From positions 1 to 55,589 of IMG/VR virus record IMGVR_UViG_3300043400_000016: a stretch of 55,589 bases of DNA; one strand, written 5' to 3'. The stretch's first letter is position 1. Each line of letters opens with the position of its first letter. This DNA is from a virus. Its lineage: Duplodnaviria; Caudoviricetes. A model generated the notes under the pieces. It worked only from the letters and a program-made list of their open reading frames with translations, did not search any database and was not told the origin of the DNA. The position numbers were made by a program, and so were the translations under genes. Positions 22,201 through 30,030 of the stretch are shown in pieces.

Positions 22201-23706
22201 ATGGATAAAGAAATTCTAGCAGAAGCTAAGCAAGAGTACCAGGGCAGTATCACCCGTGGTATGCAGCTTTGCCAAACCAAGATGGATGAGAGCCTTGGCG
22301 ATGACGCTGTGCTCAAGGCCAAAGGCTTTGCCCAGTTCTTCTCGGGCAAGCACTCGCTTGAAGAGGGCGTAGACTTTAAGAATTGGAAGCCAGCAAATCA
22401 GAAGAAGGCGGCTATCAGCGCCATCATCATGGAGAACACCCAAGAGTGGCTGCGCTCAATGGATGAAACTACCCGCGCACTCAATGTTGGCGGTTTCGTA
22501 GATTATCTCGTCCCGATGATTCGTGCTGCGTTCACTAATAATCCCATTATGGATCTTGTCTCGGTTCAGCCGATGACCCGCTCTTTGGGCCGAATTTTCT
22601 TCCTAAACTACGTCGTTGGGCAGACCAAGGGCAACCGTAACAAAGGCGACCGTGTGTTTGATGCGGTTCGTGGATACACTGGCGGTTCGACGTACACTGG
22701 CGAACAGATCACTGGCGAAAATGAGGCTGCAACTGTTAGCAGCACTACGTACACGGGACAGCTTAGCTATCTCCCTGCCCGTCGCGGTACGGTTACTATT
22801 TCCATTGATAATGGCACCAATCTAGTTGCTAGTGATAGTGGTAATGGCACGTTTACCAAGGTGTCCGGTACCAATACGATTTCTAGCAGCAGCATTGACT
22901 ACAACACCGGTACATACACCATTACCGTAGGAACTACTCTAGCCGCCGGCCTAGCTGTTACTGCTAACTATTCCTACGACAGCGAAGTCAGCACCAATAT
23001 CCCGCAGATTGATTTCCAGATCACTTCGACCGCCGTGCAGGCTATTCGCCGCGCTCTGCGCGTTCGCTACAGCACTGACGGCGCGTTTGACTACAAGCAG
23101 GAATTTGGCGAAGATGCTGACACCACTCTGACTCAGGGAGTTGCAGACCTTATCCGCGCTGAAGTTGCTCGTGAAGTTGTCGGTGATCTGTGGAGCGTGG
23201 CTGGTGCCCCGGTCACTACATTCTCGCTCGGTGTTCCAAGTGGTGTCAGTAAGGCTGAACACTTTGCGGATATTAAGCATGAGCTGTCGATTGCCGACAA
23301 TGCAATCTATGAGGCTACTCAGCGTGCCCACGGTAGCTGGATGATTTGCGACATTGCTGCCTCGTCAGTTATCCGCACTATCCCGGCCCCTGTGTTTGTC
23401 GAAGCTCCTATTGATAACCGTACTCAAGGTGTTCAGTACATCGGTAAGCTAAATGGGCTTGATGTTTATGTTGATCCAAAACTAACTGAGGGTGATGCAG
23501 CTGCTTCGACATACGGTAACATTCTCCTAGGTCACAAGGGCACTGAGTTCTGGGATGCCGGCTACGTCTATGCGCCGTACCAGCCGCTCATTTCGACGGT
23601 TGCTGTGACTCTGGATGACTTCGTTACCCGTAAGGGTCTTGCGACCAGATACGCGAAAAAGATAATTTCACCATCGATGTTTAAGAAAATCGCTCTTGGT
23701 GCGTAA
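22201..23706 (+). CDS. major capsid protein, T4 gp23-like
   Basis: AIIMEN, DLVSVQPMT...GRIFFL, AGYVYAPYQPL, F..RKGLATRYA. Confidence 0.95.
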   Translation: MDKEILAEAKQEYQGSITRGMQLCQTKMDESLGDDAVLKAKGFAQFFSGKHSLEEGVDFKNWKPANQKKAAISAIIMENTQEWLRSMDETTRALNVGGFVDYLVPMIRAAFTNNPIMDLVSVQPMTRSLGRIFFLNYVVGQTKGNRNKGDRVFDAVRGYTGGSTYTGEQITGENEAATVSSTTYTGQLSYLPARRGTVTISIDNGTNLVASDSGNGTFTKVSGTNTISSSSIDYNTGTYTITVGTTLAAGLAVTANYSYDSEVSTNIPQIDFQITSTAVQAIRRALRVRYSTDGAFDYKQEFGEDADTTLTQGVADLIRAEVAREVVGDLWSVAGAPVTTFSLGVPSGVSKAEHFADIKHELSIADNAIYEATQRAHGSWMICDIAASSVIRTIPAPVFVEAPIDNRTQGVQYIGKLNGLDVYVDPKLTEGDAAASTYGNILLGHKGTEFWDAGYVYAPYQPLISTVAVTLDDFVTRKGLATRYAKKIISPSMFKKIALGA

Positions 23707-23730
23707 TTTAAGTTACGTCTGAGTCGATTA

Positions 23731-23768
23731 AAGAGTCCAAGGTGTAACAGCCTTGGACTTTTTGTTTG
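23731..23768 (+). terminator. intrinsic terminator after MCP, possibly bidirectional
   Basis: AGTCCAAGG-TGTAACAG-CCTTGGACT followed by TTTTGTTT; A-rich flank on the other side. Confidence 0.8.
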
Positions 23769-23930
23769 GTAATTTGTGTAAGCAAACTCGCAAAATACTT
23801 ATTACATAGAAACTAACGTCGAACTTAGGCTTAGTTGGTATTGGGATTGCCCTGCGTGCGCCCACAGGAATATCGCAGGAGGCGATCACCTGGTTCCGGA
23901 GGATGAGTAGCTCTGCAAACAGTGTTTGAA

Positions 23931-24017
23931 TGGCGGAAACCAGTGGAGTTGAGCCACATCCCCGAAGGGACACTCCCGTTAGCAACGGGGTGCATACACC
24001 GGTATGCTTTGATTTCC
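23931..24017 (-). tRNA. tRNA-Ser(GCT)
   Basis: GGAAATC acceptor, loop TT-GCT-AA, long variable arm, GCCA end. Confidence 0.85.
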
Positions 24018-24022
24018 AAAAA

Positions 24023-24109
24023 TGGCGGAATGCGGAGTGATTGAAACCCTGGCCTAAGCCTCACCGCTTTTCAAGAGCGGGGCCACCTCCGGTGGTGACT
24101 ACACATTCC
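24023..24109 (-). tRNA. tRNA-Ser(TGA)
   Basis: CCGCT-CT TGA AA-AGCGG, long variable arm, GCCA end. Confidence 0.85.
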
Positions 24110-24119
24110 ATAAAATAAA

Positions 24120-24203
24120 TGCCCCTGGTCAGACTCGAACTGACACGATCTTTCGACCGGCGAGTTTTAAGCTCGCTGCGTGCTGCCTTTTCGCCACAGG
24201 GGC
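24120..24203 (-). tRNA. tRNA-Leu(TAA), no encoded CCA
   Basis: GCGAG-CT TAA AA-CTCGC, long variable arm, GTTCGAGTC T-loop. Confidence 0.9.
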
Positions 24204-24211
24204 ATTGGGCT

Positions 24212-24288
24212 TGGTACCCGAGGCGGGAATCGAACCCGCAAAATCCGATTTTTGAAATCGGCACATATACCAGTTCTGTTACTCGGGC
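24212..24288 (-). tRNA. tRNA-Leu(CAA), short variable loop
   Basis: CCGAT-TT CAA AA-ATCGG, GTTCGATTC, ACCA end; 77 nt. Confidence 0.85.
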
Positions 24289-24291
24289 AAA

Positions 24292-24373
24292 TGGTACCGC
24301 TGGCAAGACTCTAACTTGCACTGTATCTTCATGCTCAATGAAGCGACTCTACCGGGGTTTGGTCTACAGCGGC
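24292..24373 (-). tRNA. tRNA-Leu(GAG), atypical
   Basis: CTTCA-TT GAG CA-TGAAG; T-loop TTAGAGT; C at position 37; ACCA end. Confidence 0.75.
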
Positions 24374-24378
24374 ATAGA

Positions 24379-24463
24379 TGGTGAGAGATTATGGAATCGA
24401 ACCATGCGCCGTGAGGCAACGGGTTTACAGCCCGCCGAGCAACCACTGCTCTATGAATCTCCC
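24379..24463 (-). tRNA. tRNA-Tyr(GTA)
   Basis: GCGGG-CT GTA AA-CCCGT, long variable arm, ACCA end. Confidence 0.9.
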
Positions 24464-24466
24464 AAG

Positions 24467-24549
24467 TGGTACCGGTGACTGGACTCGAACCAGCACGTCT
24501 TTCGACGCTTGCTCCTAAAGCAAGTGTGTCTGCATTTCACCACACCGGC
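24467..24549 (-). tRNA. tRNA-Leu(TAG)
   Basis: CTTGC-TT TAG GA-GCAAG, long variable arm, ACCA end. Confidence 0.9.
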
Positions 24550-24593
24550 ATATCAACTTGAGCTACGCTATCGTGTTGTAAAGAACTCGGCTT

Positions 24594-24630
24594 AAACGAG
24601 AAGACCCCAGGCTTGTAGGCCCAGGGTCTT
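24594..24630 (-). terminator. attenuator terminator of the leftward tRNA operon
   Basis: Minus strand AAGACCCTGGGC-CTACAA-GCCTGGGGTCTT-CTCGTTT; 5' arm alternatively pairs with leader segment 24663-24677. Confidence 0.75.
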
Positions 24631-24657
24631 TCGATGAACATCAGATTACTCCAGATG

Positions 24658-24732
24658 CTAAGTCATCGAAAACCCTGTCGCCCGATAGAGCGAGGATAAC
24701 GACAGACTGAGCAATGAGAGCTTGCGGTTCAT
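24658..24732 (-). CDS. leader peptide of the Leu/Ser/Tyr tRNA operon (24 aa, not in ORF track)
   Basis: MNRKLSLLSLSLSSLYRATGFSMT*; 12 consecutive codons are Leu, Ser or Tyr. Confidence 0.85.
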   Translation of the reverse strand: MNRKLSLLSLSLSSLYRATGFSMT

Positions 24733-24742
24733 GGGAGAGCGA

Positions 24743-24770
24743 ACCGTAGCAGAGACTCGGCAACCGTCAA
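24743..24770 (-). promoter_or_regulatory. promoter of the leftward leader/tRNA operon
   Basis: TTGACG, 16 bp, TG-C-TACGGT (extended -10), ATG 10 nt downstream (near-leaderless). Confidence 0.65.
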
Positions 24771-24838
24771 CAACTTTTCCTAATAAGTGCTAAACACTCG
24801 TATTTTACCGTACTTTTAAGCAACTTCCAAGATTGTTG

Positions 24839-24867
24839 TTGACTCCTGTTTCCCGATCCGCTAGACA
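24839..24867 (+). promoter_or_regulatory. promoter of the rightward leader/tRNA operon
   Basis: TTGACT 24839-24844, 17 bp, TAGACA 24862-24867; ATG at 24882. Confidence 0.55.
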
Positions 24868-24881
24868 TAGTCTCATCAGCC

Positions 24882-25010
24882 ATGCGCCTTATCCCAGCCA
24901 CCACAGCGATCCACGCCGGTACGACCCAAAAAGTCGAACCCAAGGGTTTTGCATGCCAGCGCGGATTTGGGATTTGGAATCAGATGGATGAAGTGGGGCT
25001 TAACGTGTAA
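24882..25010 (+). CDS. leader peptide of the rightward tRNA operon (42 aa, not in ORF track)
   Basis: MRLIPATTAIHAGTTQKVEPKGFACQRGFGIWNQMDEVGLNV*; 18 amino-acid types, lacks only Ser and Tyr. Confidence 0.85.
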   Translation: MRLIPATTAIHAGTTQKVEPKGFACQRGFGIWNQMDEVGLNV

Positions 25011-25037
25011 GAGAGGACCATCCTCAAACCACACGTT

Positions 25038-25071
25038 AAGCCCTGGGCCAAAAGCCTAGGGCTTTTTCGTT
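25038..25071 (+). terminator. attenuator terminator of the rightward tRNA operon
   Basis: AAGCCCTGGGC-CAAAA-GCCTAGGGCTT-TTTCGTT; 25031-25043 is the exact complement of leader segment 24996-25008. Confidence 0.85.
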
Positions 25072-25210
25072 ATGGGCTGGAGATCGTGCAGACCCCAAGG
25101 GGCTAACCCGAGGCTTAACAGCCAGACCCAAGACGGTTGAAATTGCTTGTGATCTTGAAAAATCTATATTGTGGTTTGCCGGGGTTACCAAAAAGTTGGG
25201 ACCCCAACAT

Positions 25211-25285
25211 GTGTCCCTAGCTCAGCGGAAGAGCGTCTTCGTAACAGGGAGAGGGTCCGGGGTTCAATTCCCTGGGGACACACCA
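25211..25285 (+). tRNA. tRNA-Val(AAC), A34 anticodon
   Basis: GTGTCCC/GGGACAC acceptor, TCTTC-GT AAC AG-GGAGA, ACCA end. Confidence 0.8.
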
Positions 25286-25288
25286 GAA

Positions 25289-25359
25289 GTCAGAGATAGG
25301 AGTTCAAATCTCCTGTTACAAGCGAAAGCCGGTTTCTAGTTCAACGGTAGAACACTGAC
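25289..25359 (+). ncRNA. circularly permuted tRNA-like element (T arm before D arm)
   Basis: GTCAG-AGAT-AGGAG TTCAAAT CTCCT-...GC GAAA GC...-TA GTTC AACGGTA GAAC A-CTGAC. Confidence 0.6.
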
Positions 25360-25365
25360 GTTTAT

Positions 25366-25440
25366 TGCAGGATAGAGAAGCGGCATCTCAGGAGTTTCAT
25401 ACGCTCTAAGTCGTGGGTTCGAGTCCCACTCCTGCAACCA
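25366..25440 (+). tRNA. tRNA-Met(CAT), initiator-like D stem
   Basis: TGCAGGA/TCCTGCA, GGAGT-TT CAT AC-GCTCT, A11-T24 pair, ACCA end. Confidence 0.85.
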
Positions 25441-25483
25441 ATACTTTTCTTGACAGCGGGTCTCATAACCAGATACTCTGAGT

Positions 25484-25888
25484 ATGCCTATAAAAGACCC
25501 GATTGCCCGTCGTGAAAATCATAAACGGTATATGGTGCAGTATCTCTCGATTCCAAAAAATTATGCTAAGCACCTAGCCCGAGTAGCCCGGAACAAGAAG
25601 AGATACAGAAAGATTATAGATGATGCTTTAGACATCTTCAGGGCTACCGGTTGCTTAAATTGCGAAGAAAAAGAGCCGTGTGTTTTAGTAGCACACCACT
25701 TAGACCCTGATGAAAAGGAGTTTTCCATAGCTAAGATGAAGATGAGAAATATGTATAATGGTATCGCTGCTGAGCTAAAAAAGTGCGTGTGCTTATGTCA
25801 TAACTGCCACTTCAAGTACCATGCTGGAGTTATTGATATCCCGGGATTGCCGCCGGTAGTTGATAGAAAAATAGTTATGCCGAGTTAG
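25484..25888 (+). CDS. HNH endonuclease (free-standing homing type)
   Basis: CLNC...AHHLDP.EKEFSI...ELKKCVCLCHNCH. Confidence 0.85.
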   Translation: MPIKDPIARRENHKRYMVQYLSIPKNYAKHLARVARNKKRYRKIIDDALDIFRATGCLNCEEKEPCVLVAHHLDPDEKEFSIAKMKMRNMYNGIAAELKKCVCLCHNCHFKYHAGVIDIPGLPPVVDRKIVMPS

Positions 25889-25943
25889 TACAAGTGAAGA
25901 ACTTTATTGTTGATTGCTGCGGTTTTATGATTTACTTAATGCC

Positions 25944-26435
25944 ATGCAGCCGACATATCGTGAAAGACGCGCCAAAGTATTAGAATACTTAGGGACCGAG
26001 TGTGCCCATTGCGGTAGCACTTCACGCCTTGAGATAGACCACATAGACCCAAAATTAAAGTCTTATGATGTAGGCGCTAGACTAAAGTGGGCAAATTGGA
26101 ATGATCTTGTCCTTGAGCTAGCGAAGTGTCAAGCTTTATGCCATGAATGTCACAAACAAAAATCAATAAAATATCATGGGCATTCGCCGGTTAAAGGAAC
26201 TCACGGAACAACTTCGAGTTATAAATATTGCAAATGCCCTTTATGCAGAAAAGCAAAGTCAGACTACAACGCGGAGTACAAGACAAGGAAAGGATTGCGC
26301 ACCGGGACTAAGCCACGCACCGGACTTGTGCATGGGACATGTAACGCATATCAGTATTACGGCTGCCGCTGTGATTTATGTAAAACGGCAAAACATGAAG
26401 CGTATAAAGCTAAGCGAAATGGTATGTCTGTGTAG
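25944..26435 (+). CDS. HNH endonuclease with two HGT..Y..CxCxxC Zn ribbons
   Basis: CAHC...LEIDHIDP...KCQALCHECH; ORF track start 25914 (TTG), ATG 25944 more likely; stop overlaps tRNA-Phe. Confidence 0.85.
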   Translation: MQPTYRERRAKVLEYLGTECAHCGSTSRLEIDHIDPKLKSYDVGARLKWANWNDLVLELAKCQALCHECHKQKSIKYHGHSPVKGTHGTTSSYKYCKCPLCRKAKSDYNAEYKTRKGLRTGTKPRTGLVHGTCNAYQYYGCRCDLCKTAKHEAYKAKRNGMSV

Positions 26436-26502
26436 CTCAGTTGGTAGTAGCGCTGGTTTGAAAAACCAGAGGCCGTAAGTTCGACTCTTACCACAGACAC
26501 CA
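26426..26502 (+). tRNA. tRNA-Phe(GAA)
   Basis: CTGGT-TT GAA AA-ACCAG, GTTCGACTC, ACCA end. Confidence 0.9.
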
Positions 26503-26573
26503 CCCGACTACGAATGCTGTGTTGACTACATTTAAGGAAAACCGTCAATGCAATTTTTGTCGTAGTCTTTTAT

Positions 26574-26647
26574 GGGCCGTTCCTCCATTGGTAAGAGGCG
26601 TGATTTTCAATCACATAAAGAGGGTTCGATTCCCTCACGGTCTACCA
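26574..26647 (+). tRNA. tRNA-Glu(TTC)
   Basis: GTGA-TT TTC AA-TCAC, GTTCGATTC, ACCA end. Confidence 0.85.
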
Positions 26648-26678
26648 CATTACAAGGCAAACAGTGTTTGCTCAACAT

Positions 26679-26750
26679 GCTCGTATCGTCCAATGGTAGT
26701 GACGACTGATTCTCAGTCAGTAGACCGGGGTCCGATTCCCCGTACGAGTA
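26679..26750 (+). tRNA. tRNA-Glu(CTC), no encoded CCA
   Basis: ACTGA-TT CTC AG-TCAGT; T-loop TCCGATT. Confidence 0.85.
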
Positions 26751-26790
26751 AATATATTGACGGCGGTACTTGGTAGATTAGAACCAGCAT

Positions 26791-27309
26791 ATGGTTATAG
26801 ACTACTCCAGAAAATCAGCGCTCCTTCTAGCCGAATCTATTGGTTACATCATTAAAGAAGGCAACGTTTATCATCCGAAGAAAGTTACACCCGTAAAATT
26901 ATACCCTGTTGATGGGTACCCGACTTTTTCTGTCCGCTCTCGGACTCGTGGGATAAAGGGACTGGTGGCTGTACACCGCCTTTTAGCATACAGGAAGTAT
27001 GGTGACGCGGTATTTGACAATAACATAGAAGTTAGGCATCTTGACGCTGACCGATCAAATTTTAGCTACGAAAACATTGTTATAGGAACAGCTTTACAAA
27101 ACTCTTTAGATAAACCGACTTCTCTCAGACGGGCAGTAGCCATAATAGCGTCGTCGCATAAAAGAGTCCTATCCAATACCGACGTGGCTAGTATTCTTGA
27201 AATGAGAAAAAATAATAAAACTTATAAACAGATTGGCGCTATTTATGGCATATCTAAATCAACACTATCGTATCTTTTTAATAAATCTTATTACGCAAAA
27301 AATTTATAG
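26791..27309 (+). CDS. HNH homing endonuclease with C-terminal HTH
   Basis: VHRLLAY...EVRHLDADRSNFSYENI...QN; TYKQIGAIYGISKSTLSY. Confidence 0.85.
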   Translation: MVIDYSRKSALLLAESIGYIIKEGNVYHPKKVTPVKLYPVDGYPTFSVRSRTRGIKGLVAVHRLLAYRKYGDAVFDNNIEVRHLDADRSNFSYENIVIGTALQNSLDKPTSLRRAVAIIASSHKRVLSNTDVASILEMRKNNKTYKQIGAIYGISKSTLSYLFNKSYYAKNL

Positions 27310-27322
27310 TACTAATTAAGCT

Positions 27323-27396
27323 GTTCCCAGAGTCAGGCGGTACGACGACGCACTGTCACTGTGTAAGATCGGGTTCAACTCCCGATGGGGACGCCA
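27323..27396 (+). tRNA. tRNA-Asp(GTC)
   Basis: ACGCA-CT GTC AC-TGTGT, GCCA end. Confidence 0.85.
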
Positions 27397-27414
27397 CTTT
27401 TTAAGATTATTACT

Positions 27415-27489
27415 CGGCGGGTTGTCCGGTAGACACCACGCGCCTGATAAGCGCGTTGGAGGGTGGTCCGACTCCACTCCCGCCGACCA
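27415..27489 (+). tRNA. tRNA-Ile(GAT)
   Basis: CGGCGGG/CCCGCCG, CGCGC-CT GAT AA-GCGCG, T-loop TCCGACT, ACCA end. Confidence 0.8.
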
Positions 27490-27498
27490 TTTCAGTGT

Positions 27499-27572
27499 TG
27501 GCGGATCATATAATGGTATTATGGCCGATTGTTACTCGGTTCATCTCCGTTCGAGTCGGAGTCTGCCAGCCA
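27499..27572 (+). tRNA. tRNA-Asn(GTT)
   Basis: GCCGA-TT GTT AC-TCGGT, GCCA end. Confidence 0.9.
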
Positions 27573-27666
27573 GATGGCGTCTATGACGCCCGTGTGTCTC
27601 ACGTTAAACGGTCATCGGGTATGCTCCGCCCATAAGGATGACAGGGAGGAAAGACTCTCACGTTTT

Positions 27667-27739
27667 GGGCGCTACTGTCATGGTGACGGTCGAGCTTTGC
27701 AAGCTTGCTGACGGGTCCGATTCCCCCGAGTGTCCACCA
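27667..27739 (+). tRNA. tRNA-Ala(TGC)
   Basis: G3:U70 pair (GGGCGCT/AGTGTCC), CGAGC-TT TGC AA-GCTTG, ACCA end. Confidence 0.85.
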
Positions 27740-27742
27740 TTT

Positions 27743-27814
27743 ACGAGACATGGCAGCGCACAGCGAGAACTCCAAATCCTTGCATGTCCGAATCAACACC
27801 GGGGTCTCGTGCCA
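27743..27814 (+). tRNA. tRNA-Trp(CCA), atypical D and T arms
   Basis: ACGAGAC/GTCTCGT acceptor, G73, loop CT CCA AA; shrunken D arm, T-loop ATCAACA. Confidence 0.65.
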
Positions 27815-27823
27815 TGCTGTTAT

Positions 27824-27899
27824 TGAGGAATGGCCTAACTGGTAAGGCAGCGCTCTCTGAAAGCGAAGATTAGTGGTTCGAGTCCACTTTCCTCAACCA
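27824..27899 (+). tRNA. tRNA-Gln(CTG)
   Basis: T1-A72, CGCT-CT CTG AA-AGCG, ACCA end. Confidence 0.9.
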
Positions 27900-27906
27900 T
27901 TCACAT

Positions 27907-27980
27907 TGACCCATTGCATAACGGTAGTGCCTCGGATTTTGGCTCCGATGGTCGGGATTCGATTTCCTGTGGGTCAACCA
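27907..27980 (+). tRNA. tRNA-Gln(TTG)
   Basis: T1-A72, TCGGA-TT TTG GC-TCCGA, ACCA end. Confidence 0.9.
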
Positions 27981-27986
27981 TTTCAT

Positions 27987-28062
27987 CTGAACGTAGCGTA
28001 ACTTGGCAGCGTACGAGTCTTGGGCACTCGCGGTGCGGGTTCAAATCCCGCCGTTCAGACCA
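27987..28062 (+). tRNA. tRNA-Pro(TGG)
   Basis: C1-G72, CGAGT-CT TGG GC-ACTCG, ACCA end. Confidence 0.9.
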
Positions 28063-28066
28063 TTTT

Positions 28067-28151
28067 GACAGAATAGCCTAGCGGCGAAGGCACTGGATTG
28101 CAAACCCAGCGGAGCAACCCCACATGAGTTCGAGTCTCATTTCTGTCTCCA
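28067..28151 (+). tRNA. tRNA-Cys(GCA) with long variable region
   Basis: Loop TT GCA AA, U73 (TCCA end), 14-nt variable region CGGAGCAACCCCAC. Confidence 0.85.
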
Positions 28152-28156
28152 GTTAT

Positions 28157-28220
28157 GTGTCTATAACTCAATCTGGTAGAGCGGTGCCGCAGGGCACATT
28201 GCGCGGCAGCTAGAGCGTCA
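28157..28220 (+). pseudogene. degenerate tRNA, probably a tRNA-His remnant
   Basis: 5' half GTGTCTA-TA-ACTCAATCTGGTAGAGC resembles tRNA-His; anticodon arm GTGCC-GCAG-GGCAC has a 4-nt loop; no T arm or CCA. Confidence 0.5.
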
Positions 28221-28240
28221 AAGATAAGAAAAGAAAATAA

Positions 28241-28315
28241 GCGTGTATAAGTCAACAGCTAGACCGGCAGTCTTCCAAACTGCAAACCCCGGGGCAGCAC
28301 CGGGTACACGCTCCA
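28241..28315 (+). tRNA. tRNA-Gly(TCC), atypical elbow
   Basis: GCG..CGC-TCCA identity, GCAGT-CT TCC AA-ACTGC; D-loop lacks GG, T-loop GGCAGCA. Confidence 0.8.
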
Positions 28316-28319
28316 TAAT

Positions 28320-28395
28320 GCTCCTGTAGGCTAATTGGAAAAACCGGTGGACTACGAATCCGTCATTCCACGTTCAAGTCGTGGCGGGAGCGCCA
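28320..28395 (+). tRNA. tRNA-Arg(ACG)
   Basis: GTGGA-CT ACG AA-TCCGT, GCCA end. Confidence 0.9.
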
Positions 28396-28398
28396 TAT

Positions 28399-28473
28399 GC
28401 CACCAAACCTTAGATAGCGAAGGACCGCACTTGTAATGCGGAAAGCGGGGTGCATGTCCTCGTGGTGGCTCCA
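28399..28473 (+). tRNA. tRNA-Thr(TGT), atypical elbow
   Basis: CCGCA-CT TGT AA-TGCGG; T-loop TGCATGT; TCCA end. Confidence 0.8.
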
Positions 28474-28478
28474 TTGAT

Positions 28479-28566
28479 GCTGACTTACCCAAGAGACCGA
28501 AGGGAACTCATTCGTAACGAGGCGAGAGAAATCTCCGCGTTGGTTTAAATCCAACAGTCAGCTCCA
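28479..28566 (+). tRNA. tRNA-Thr(CGT) with long variable arm
   Basis: GCTGACT/AGTCAGC, loop TT CGT AA, variable hairpin GAGA-GAAA-TCTC, TCCA end. Confidence 0.75.
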
Positions 28567-28569
28567 TAC

Positions 28570-28601
28570 GCACATCAGGCTTGCGCCCGAGATGTGCTCC
28601 A
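28570..28601 (+). ncRNA. acceptor-stem minihelix ending in UCCA
   Basis: GCACATC-AGGCTTGCGCCCGA-GATGTGC-T-CCA, spaced like a tRNA gene in the array. Confidence 0.55.
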
Positions 28602-28604
28602 AAA

Positions 28605-28678
28605 GGGTTGCGAGTATTCCGGCCATACATCCCGCTTTTAACGGGAGGAACCGTGTTCGATTCACGGGCGACCCACCA
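28605..28678 (+). tRNA. tRNA-Lys(TTT)
   Basis: TCCCG-CT TTT AA-CGGGA, ACCA end. Confidence 0.9.
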
Positions 28679-28679
28679 C

Positions 28680-28754
28680 GCTCTGCAAGCATACACGGAG
28701 ATGCATTGGTTTCTTAAACCAGGGAATTCGGTTCAAGTCCGAAGCGGAGCACCA
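28680..28754 (+). tRNA. tRNA-Lys(CTT)
   Basis: TTGGT-TT CTT AA-ACCAG, ACCA end. Confidence 0.9.
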
Positions 28755-28757
28755 CAT

Positions 28758-28831
28758 GCGAGATTATTTAAGCGGTAGAAAGCCTCTTTTACACTGAAGA
28801 AGTCGGGGTTCGATTCCCTCATCTCGCACCA
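28758..28831 (+). tRNA. tRNA-Val(TAC), weak anticodon stem
   Basis: GCGAGAT/ATCTCGC, loop TT TAC AC, ACCA end; two mismatches in anticodon stem. Confidence 0.75.
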
Positions 28832-28866
28832 CCACACCACCCGGCAAACCACAGAAAGATAAAATC

Positions 28867-29418
28867 ATGCCAGTCGGAAGTACAATAGTTCTCAACTGTG
28901 ACTACTCCTATCTTAGTATAAATGGATGGTATTCAGCCATCGGACTAATCCTCCGTGGTCGTGCTGCTCCACTGGCATCCTACGACTCCAAGATCCGCTC
29001 AGAGAAGTGGGAGATTCCTGCTCCCGCTGTTATCCAACTCAAGGAGATGGCTAATACTCGAAGGCGAAGGCAACCATTCACTTTACCCAGCCACAAGAAT
29101 GTGTGGGTGAGAGAGAAAGGACGCTGTGCCTACTGCGGAGTGAAAATGTCTCTGCGGGCAGCCACGAAGGAGCACGTACATCCTCGTGGTCTTGGCGGTC
29201 AGGATACTCTGCTCAACGTTGTGGCTGCTTGTGAGCCTTGCAACGGAAAGAAGGGTTGCAGGACTCCTGCTCAAGCAGGCATGAAGTTCCGTGAGGGCGT
29301 CGAGCTACGCCATCTGACTGATGAAGAGAAGTTGGAAGTCATCATGAAGACTTCTAAAAGCCACGAGCGTAATGCTTGGCTTAGCTTCTTGAAAAAGGAA
29401 GGACTGTCTTTATTCTGA
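28867..29418 (+). CDS. HNH endonuclease (McrA-like)
   Basis: IVLN.DY..L, NVWVREKGRCAYCG, TKEHVHPR..GG.DT..NVVAACEPCN.KKG.RTP. Confidence 0.9.
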   Translation: MPVGSTIVLNCDYSYLSINGWYSAIGLILRGRAAPLASYDSKIRSEKWEIPAPAVIQLKEMANTRRRRQPFTLPSHKNVWVREKGRCAYCGVKMSLRAATKEHVHPRGLGGQDTLLNVVAACEPCNGKKGCRTPAQAGMKFREGVELRHLTDEEKLEVIMKTSKSHERNAWLSFLKKEGLSLF

Positions 29419-29521
29419 CACTATGTCAGTGGGTTGCCAAGCGAGGCTGCCCGGTTATTAAGGCCGAATAAATTTGGGTTTTGTCACCCAGGCTAGATTA
29501 CCCTCTCGACTGACGAGACTT

Positions 29522-29558
29522 AAACACCCAGACTGATACTCTGGGTGTTTTCGTTATT
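29522..29558 (+). terminator. intrinsic terminator
   Basis: AAACACCCAGA-CTGATAC-TCTGGGTGTTT-TCGTTATT. Confidence 0.7.
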
Positions 29559-29759
29559 ATGAGAGGGTGGTGAAACGTGGTACGGTAGTGCGGTAGTGCG
29601 GCTGCACTCTATGAGTGCCCTACGGCCAATTGCCCAAGTGGGTGCGCTAGTATACGCGGGAACTAGACTCTCCGTTAGACACTGCCAACCAACCGCTAGC
29701 GATTGGCGCTGAGACAGTTGGCTTTCGTAACTGCGGTCATTATGCCCGAGCAACAGTTC

Positions 29760-29790
29760 ACCCTGGGAAACCCCAGGGTCTTTTGTTTTC
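29760..29790 (+). terminator. intrinsic terminator closing the tRNA/ncRNA region
   Basis: ACCCTGGG-AAAC-CCCAGGGT followed by CTTTTGTTTT. Confidence 0.8.
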
Positions 29791-29877
29791 TACGCAAACA
29801 CTGTTTGCATTCTAAGCCCTCAGAACGGTTGCACGCTGTGCTAATCAGGTACATTTAATGTTACCAAGGAATATGCC

Positions 29878-30030
29878 ATGGCCTTAGCCTCTACGCTTGC
29901 AACAAATCTAACTACTGGCTCAGGTGTCGTGGTTTTCGCTGGTGAGGCAACCAGCGTCGTTGTGTGGGATGTTACTAGTGGCGTCGGACGCGCCAACTTT
30001 AGCGTCAGTTTCTTCATCACTGAGGAGTAA
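29878..30030 (+). CDS. 50-aa hypothetical, possibly virion protein (not in ORF track)
   Basis: AAGGA RBS; MALASTLATNLTTGSGVVVFAGEATSVVVWDVTSGVGRANFSVSFFITEE*. Confidence 0.5.
   Translation: MALASTLATNLTTGSGVVVFAGEATSVVVWDVTSGVGRANFSVSFFITEE

Follow-up and report, generated by a model that had tools for sequence, protein, structure and literature searches.

In classical leader-peptide attenuators of amino-acid operons, such as trpL, hisL, leuL and pheL (the pheL model, PMC3082878), a short ORF with control codons is followed by a 1:2 / 2:3 / 3:4 helix set, in which the antiterminator overlaps the 5' arm of the terminator and the stop codon lies next to segment 2. T-box leaders also tie the expression of translation-related genes to tRNA status through terminator/antiterminator competition, but they bind one uncharged tRNA directly and need no translation. 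In addition, leaderless polycysteine short ORFs act as attenuators in mycobacteria (bioRxiv 10.1101/834739), where a regulatory short ORF is translated without a 5' UTR or Shine-Dalgarno sequence and senses the supply of an amino acid. Phages with large tRNA sets are common, but how they time and dose tRNA production is largely unknown. Here, we describe a locus in which an uncultured phage, possibly of freshwater origin, seems to place each of its two divergent tRNA gene arrays behind a short leader peptide and a terminator/antiterminator switch.

The window, meaning the whole stretch of DNA analysed, is the IMG/VR virus record IMGVR_UViG_3300043400_000016 with a length of 55,589 nt, estimated at about 38% complete. 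It encodes a T4-type major capsid protein, a prohead protease, a tail sheath and HNH endonucleases, and the nearest cultured phages share only about 33% capsid identity. Just after the capsid gene lie two divergent tRNA arrays, separated by a 660-nt spacer (24550-25210). The first-pass annotation proposed a leftward attenuator in the left half of this spacer, with control codons for each of seven Leu/Ser/Tyr tRNAs, and all the features that it described were confirmed.

Specifically, the left leader ORF runs on the minus strand from the ATG at 24732 to the TAG at 24660-24658 and encodes MNRKLSLLSLSLSSLYRATGFSMT in 24 codons. Codons 5-16 (24720-24685) are all Leu/Ser/Tyr. This run of 12 is the longest in the six frames of the window, in which only 4 runs of 8 or more exist and the next longest is 8, and 1 of 300 Markov-1 simulated windows reached 12. 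Only the frame that carries the ATG and the stop next to segment 2 gives this run. The leftward tRNA array (23931-24549, minus strand) follows on the same strand. Default ARAGORN found Leu(tag), Tyr(gta), Leu(caa) and Leu(taa), and a relaxed threshold added Leu(gag) at 24292-24373, Ser(tga) at 24023-24109 and Ser(gct) at 23931-24016. The two Ser genes fold as long-arm cloverleaves. Leu(gag) does not fold cleanly, but in a relative from another metagenome three of its stem pairs (24372/24297, 24339/24331 and 24341/24329) change on both sides while its anticodon stays the same.

Next, we examined the helices of the left leader. Segment 2 (CAGGGTTTTCGATGA, 24677-24663), formed by the last codons of the ORF, pairs over 15 bp with one bulged G to segment 3 (TCATCGAAAGACCCTG, 24637-24622), which shares 9 nt with the 5' arm of a 12-bp terminator-like hairpin (24630-24619 / 24612-24601, including 2 G-U pairs, loop CTACAA; 24591-24630 with its tail). 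All of these pairs passed explicit pairing checks, with energies of -27.6 kcal/mol for the 2:3 helix and -23.0 kcal/mol for the hairpin. The best duplex between the terminator-arm region and the 92 nt upstream was matched by 6 of 2000 dinucleotide shuffles, and the 226-nt leader folds better than shuffles (z = -3.7). However, the U-tract is weak (CTCGTTTAAG), and a terminator scan did not flag this hairpin. The 1:2 helix CTGTCG/CGACAG noted in the first-pass annotation exists as complementarity, but the minimum-energy fold instead pairs segment 2 with control codons 9-13 in a longer imperfect hairpin. In this ribosome-free fold, the 1:2 + 3:4 state scores -58.4 kcal/mol, 10.6 kcal/mol below the 2:3 state (-47.8 kcal/mol), as in classical three-helix attenuators.

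Interestingly, we found a mirror-image element on the plus strand of the same spacer. The right leader ORF (24882-25010) encodes MRLIPATTAIHAGTTQKVEPKGFACQRGFGIWNQMDEVGLNV in 42 codons, and contains all 17 amino acids other than Leu, Ser and Tyr, with no Ser, no Tyr and two Leu. Its last codons plus the first base of the TAA stop codon form segment 2 (GGGGCTTAACGTGT, 24995-25008), which pairs perfectly over 14 bp with segment 3 (ACACGTTAAGCCCT, 25031-25044). Segment 3 shares 7 nt with the 5' arm of a strong predicted intrinsic terminator (25038-25064; 11-bp stem, 5-nt loop, tail TTTCGTT to 25072), which was flagged by the terminator scan. The antiterminator scores -29.3 kcal/mol and the terminator -20.5 kcal/mol, 9 of 2000 shuffles reached the observed duplex, and this leader also folds better than shuffles (z = -3.3). 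Unlike on the left, the two states of the right transcript are close (-72.7 kcal/mol for the antiterminator and -70.3 kcal/mol for the terminator). Without any translation, the left element should accordingly terminate, while the right element sits near balance and slightly favours read-through, and completed translation should be what triggers termination on the right.

Downstream of the right element lies an array of about 20 recognised tRNA genes (25211-28831, plus strand), interrupted by HNH genes: Val(aac), Met, Phe, Glu x2, Asp, Ile, Asn, Ala(tgc), Gln x2, Pro, Cys, Gly(tcc), Arg(acg), Thr x2, Lys x2 and Val(tac). All serve amino acids other than Leu, Ser and Tyr. No His or Trp tRNA gene was recognised in the arrays, although both amino acids are present in the right leader; a Trp-like stretch at 27743-27819 and the other tRNA-sized gaps do not fold as tRNAs.

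To evaluate whether the composition of the leaders could arise by chance, we compared it with other sequences of the window. Among 177 ATG ORFs of 30-60 residues in six frames, 2 contain all 17 other amino acids, 2 have at most two Leu/Ser/Tyr, and only the right leader has both. Among 6617 42-residue windows in 13 long proteins of the phage, 33 contain all 17, 70 have at most two Leu/Ser/Tyr, and none has both. Leu/Ser/Tyr account for 13 of 23 codons in the left leader (codons 2-24) and for 2 of 41 in the right leader (codons 2-42) (Fisher P = 6e-6). The two leaders therefore divide the amino acids in the same way as the two arrays divide the tRNA genes, which is the strongest single argument that the ORFs are sensors tuned to their own operons. 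Although the pattern was noticed after the fact in a scan of many windows, several independent low probabilities coincide at one 480-nt spacer, and substitutions in relatives follow codon periodicity, making a chance coincidence of ORFs and hairpins very improbable.

The first-pass annotation had further inferred that the use of different synonymous codons means that isoacceptors are sensed individually. This inference is not supported. All 7 left tRNAs and 19 of 20 right tRNAs have a cognate codon in their leader, but with the amino-acid sequence kept and synonymous codons redrawn from the phage's own usage, full coverage of the 7 left tRNAs still arose in 35% of 20000 trials, and the observed right coverage in 36%. 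With 12 random Leu/Ser/Tyr codons, the left figure is 16%. By strict wobble, only 12 of 23 left-leader and 30 of 41 right-leader codons are read by the tRNAs of their own array, and Glu(ctc) has no codon in the right leader. The signal lies in which amino acids are present, not in which codons.

These observations bear on the possibility that both elements are translation-coupled attenuators reporting general elongation capacity, such as ribosome speed, coupling to RNA polymerase, global starvation or translation inhibitors, with the match between composition and array being a by-product of history. In favour of this view, the right leader has one to five copies of each of 17 amino acids and no tandem runs, includes His and Trp, and shows no tuning of codon choice to the anticodons. 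However, a general sensor has no need to exclude Ser and Tyr from 42 codons, or to pack 12 Leu/Ser/Tyr codons in a row on the other side. We consider this alternative unlikely.

We also searched for signals of transcription and translation at both ORFs. The exact 9-mer GTTGTTGAC occurs only twice in the window, 38 nt before the left ATG and 43 nt before the right ATG, and each copy contains a TTGAC -35-like box. The putative leftward promoter (24743-24770, minus strand) comprises TTGACG (24770-24765), a 16-nt spacer and TACGGT (24748-24743), and leaves only 10 nt before the ATG. The putative rightward promoter (24839-24867, plus strand) comprises TTGACT (24839-24844), a 17-nt spacer and TAGACA (24862-24867), followed by 14 nt before the ATG. 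Both are weak matches that the promoter scan did not flag, and their assignment is inference only. Neither leader ORF has a Shine-Dalgarno sequence, as is the case for many genes of this phage, so that translation would need short-leader or leaderless initiation, which is inferred only and for which the mycobacterial short ORFs set a precedent.

We then examined natural variation in contigs from three other studies, which cover parts of the spacer at roughly 90-93% identity over the left leader and promoter spacer and 94-96% (98% in one case) over the right element. Of 10 visible substitutions in the right ORF, 8 fall at codon position 3 (P = 0.0034 for this frame), 6 are synonymous, and the four replacements are A6T, I10M, H11N and Q26H. 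An independent search of the protein collection returned one 42-residue homologue (P0060) at 90% identity with exactly these four changes. A profile search of 1.84 billion representative proteins found only that one, and tblastn against cultured phages found none. The only His codon is thus lost at position 11 and regained at position 26, so all 17 amino acids remain, still with no Ser or Tyr, which suggests that the set of amino acids itself is kept. The predicted structure of the 5' part of the right ORF is not maintained, as 4 of 6 paired variant sites break their pair, so conservation there is of the reading frame and not of RNA folding. No substitution was resolved in 24963-25057, which covers segment 2, its loop, segment 3 and the terminator 5' arm, although up to 2 of 14 differences in one piece and 5 of 22 in another were not resolved. 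The one resolved change in the terminator (25058 A>G) turns an A-U pair into G-U. Indels occur only between the two -35 boxes, with a net length of zero in each relative. For the left leader, a 265-nt contig spans 24593-24845 with 18 substitutions and no indel inside the ORF or the attenuator, but the individual substitutions were not resolved. These comparative data come from one closely related lineage only, and the coding-type evolution, and with it the suggestion of translation, applies to the right ORF only.

Relatives with genomic context were not obtained. The capsid protein has homologues at 85%, 77% and 59% identity, but capsid queries recovered none of them among viral contigs or metagenome contigs (only hits of 38% identity or less in the latter). 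DNA patterns were no more successful: the 3' end of tRNA-Leu(tag) matched 4 loci over only 30 nt, a loose terminator pattern found 5 unrelated hairpins with no tRNA genes, and right segment 3 plus the terminator, the right terminator alone and tRNA-Leu(caa) also failed. Among the 164 loci retrieved there is no tRNA array, and none holds more than 3 tRNA genes. None of the window's own small ORFs is in the protein collection, and the alternative-frame 40-aa ORF over the left leader has no homologue.

Two further alternatives can be weighed. In the first, there is no leader-peptide control: the right ORF is a small protein gene with its own terminator, the left ORF is a chance frame, and the hairpins are ordinary terminators, RNA processing signals or stabilising structures at the 5' ends of tRNA precursors. 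The lack of Shine-Dalgarno sequences, the weak left U-tract and the purifying selection on the right ORF (dN/dS of roughly 0.2) would suit this view, and a CCCTGGG-type hairpin is also used at 29761-29778, at the end of the right array. However, it does not explain the stable alternative helices that overlap both terminators and end at both stop codons, the complementary compositions that mirror the arrays, or why a protein gene's terminator would sit between a promoter and a co-oriented tRNA operon on both sides. We therefore regard it as unlikely. In the second, the switch is set by a phage or host RNA-binding protein, direct tRNA binding or a small molecule, with the ORFs being incidental. 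The terminator/antiterminator competition is clear, and the structured part is invariant in relatives as far as resolved. On the other hand, cmscan of 22500-30000 at E up to 1 returned tRNA models and four weak non-tRNA matches that all lie over tRNA genes or inside the right-hand array, and no Rfam family, T-box included, matched in 24550-25210. The third-position bias points to translation of the right ORF, the composition signal is specific to the reading frame, and one binding site could not read 7 or 20 tRNA species. This possibility appears very unlikely.

Taken together, our best reading, to which we assign a probability of about 0.6, is that two back-to-back, ribosome-mediated transcription attenuators each gate one phage tRNA operon. 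Each leader ORF ends in segment 2 of an antiterminator whose segment 3 overlaps the 5' arm of a terminator (a terminator-like hairpin on the left) lying 45 nt (left) or about 140 nt (right) before the first tRNA gene. The two terminators are related in sequence, with 29 of the last 43 aligned columns identical and a CCCTGGG core shared with the hairpin at the far end of the right array. A MAFFT alignment of the two attenuators was not in structural register and gave no pair counts. Segment 2 ends 2 nt before the TAG on the left and includes the first base of the TAA on the right, and the last left control codon lies 8 nt before segment 2. Assuming a typical ribosome footprint, a ribosome that translates smoothly to the stop codon would occupy segment 2, so the terminator forms and the array stays off. 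A ribosome held up earlier for lack of an aminoacyl-tRNA would leave segment 2 free to pair with segment 3, so RNA polymerase reads on into the tRNA genes; this is inferred from the geometry and from the trp/his/leu mechanism, and termination at the hairpins is also inferred. The left leader would query Leu, Ser and Tyr, the only amino acids served by the left array, and the right leader the other 17. The inferred result is negative feedback, in which the arrays are transcribed when charged tRNAs are short, for example after tRNA loss during infection, and shut down once supply is restored. Host tRNAs also read these codons, so the sensed quantity is total supply and not phage tRNA alone.

We further speculate, more tentatively and at slightly less than even odds, that the phage carries a self-regulating tRNA-on-demand circuit. 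In this view, a shortage of any charged tRNA, for instance after host anticodon-nuclease defence or infection-induced tRNA decay, stalls the ribosome on the matching leader and switches on only the operon that can resupply that tRNA. This would be the first attenuator whose output is tRNA itself, and the first leader peptide to act as a near-complete sampler of the genetic code. Searches of the literature, including one aimed at the E. coli tRNA-Phe genes, returned no report of a leader peptide or attenuator before tRNA genes, although they largely excluded subscription journals and older work. Such a switch would close the loop directly, since the ribosome waiting for a tRNA would control synthesis of the very molecule it waits for, and it would show that one leader can poll many amino acids at once and that a genome can divide this polling between two operons. 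A small ORF whose composition mirrors the downstream tRNA set and whose stop codon sits in an antiterminator would also give a sequence signature for finding regulated tRNA operons in metagenomes. In addition, the locus would offer a compact natural sensor of tRNA availability, and a testable link between phage tRNA arrays and host defences that destroy tRNAs.

Compared with the tRNA gene arrays of cultured phages, as annotated for Streptomyces phage BillNye and Aeromonas phage TSW001, the present arrays similarly contain many clustered tRNA genes, often with HNH endonuclease genes among them, but in those two records Leu/Ser/Tyr tRNAs are mixed with the others. The stretch of Tunturiibacter phage Tunturi_5 lists no tRNA features, and the 630-nt spacer before the TSW001 array, the only upstream spacer examined, holds no terminator-like site. 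A T-box leader would have to serve 7 or 20 tRNAs here, and the mycobacterial polycysteine ORFs sense one amino acid and control protein-coding operons. Multivalent attenuation in the thr and ilv leaders, where a shortage of any of several amino acids probably relieves termination, is likely at most three-valent with repeated codons, whereas the present right leader would be 17-valent, with mostly one to four codons per amino acid. The pheST attenuator likewise appears to place a gene of the translation apparatus under leader-peptide control, but with a protein as the product. The proposed mechanism is that of the trp/his/leu/pheL leaders, from which this element departs in that the regulated genes are tRNA genes and not biosynthetic enzymes, the control codons cover three or seventeen amino acids and not a tandem run of one, no Shine-Dalgarno sequence is present, no Rfam leader family matches, and the elements come as a divergent pair that divides the 20 amino acids between them.

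We also found a second ORF of 34 codons on the minus strand (24537-24641), which starts in the loop of the left antiterminator, with GGAG located 7 nt before its ATG. This ORF runs through the terminator hairpin into tRNA-Leu(tag), and in the ribosome-free fold the GGAG is paired to codons 5-6 of the leader. At the other end of the leftward array, about 170 nt between the last tRNA gene and the capsid gene (23760-23930, minus strand) have no assignment, and a relative's contig carries about 128 extra letters here. On the rightward side, contigs of two relatives stop matching at 25207, four bases before tRNA-Val(aac), and continue with other sequence, indicating that the first tRNA gene of the right array differs between close relatives.

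The rightward tRNA genes are interspersed with three HNH endonuclease-like genes (25914-26435, 26791-27309 and 28867-29418), although the first of these is only a weak match below the Pfam cut-off. In addition, the gaps at 25286-25365, 27573-27666, 27740-27823 and 28152-28240 in the right array are the size of a tRNA gene. Some of them have tRNA-like pieces, including a T-arm-like GGAGTTCAAATCTCC, and a 7-bp acceptor-like stem followed by GCCA and a CCA triplet in the middle. However, these gaps do not fold as cloverleaves, and we speculated that they may be decayed tRNA genes or other small RNAs.

In the window, the 13-nt near-palindrome CAAACACTGTTTG gave 35 strand-matches at up to 1 mismatch, against 0.06 expected. 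These matches fall at about 22 sites, for example 2214, 14466, 18529, 20641, 23916, 26658, 29795, 42100 and 50095. Most sites lie just upstream of or at gene starts, and two lie inside the tRNA arrays. The near-palindrome is a candidate phage promoter, operator or RNA-processing motif.

Several of the tRNA genes themselves are unusual, with the loop features read by eye. Leu(gag) (24292-24373, minus strand) has C at position 37 and an odd T-loop, and was missed by both default ARAGORN and Rfam, while Gly(tcc) (28241-28312, plus strand) has the T-loop GCAGCAC. Ala(tgc) (27667-27739, plus strand) carries G3:U70. Leu(caa) (24212-24288, minus strand) is only 77 nt, without a long arm. Cys(gca) (28067-28151, plus strand) at 85 nt and Thr(cgt) (28479-28566, plus strand) at 88 nt are unusually long for these amino acids.
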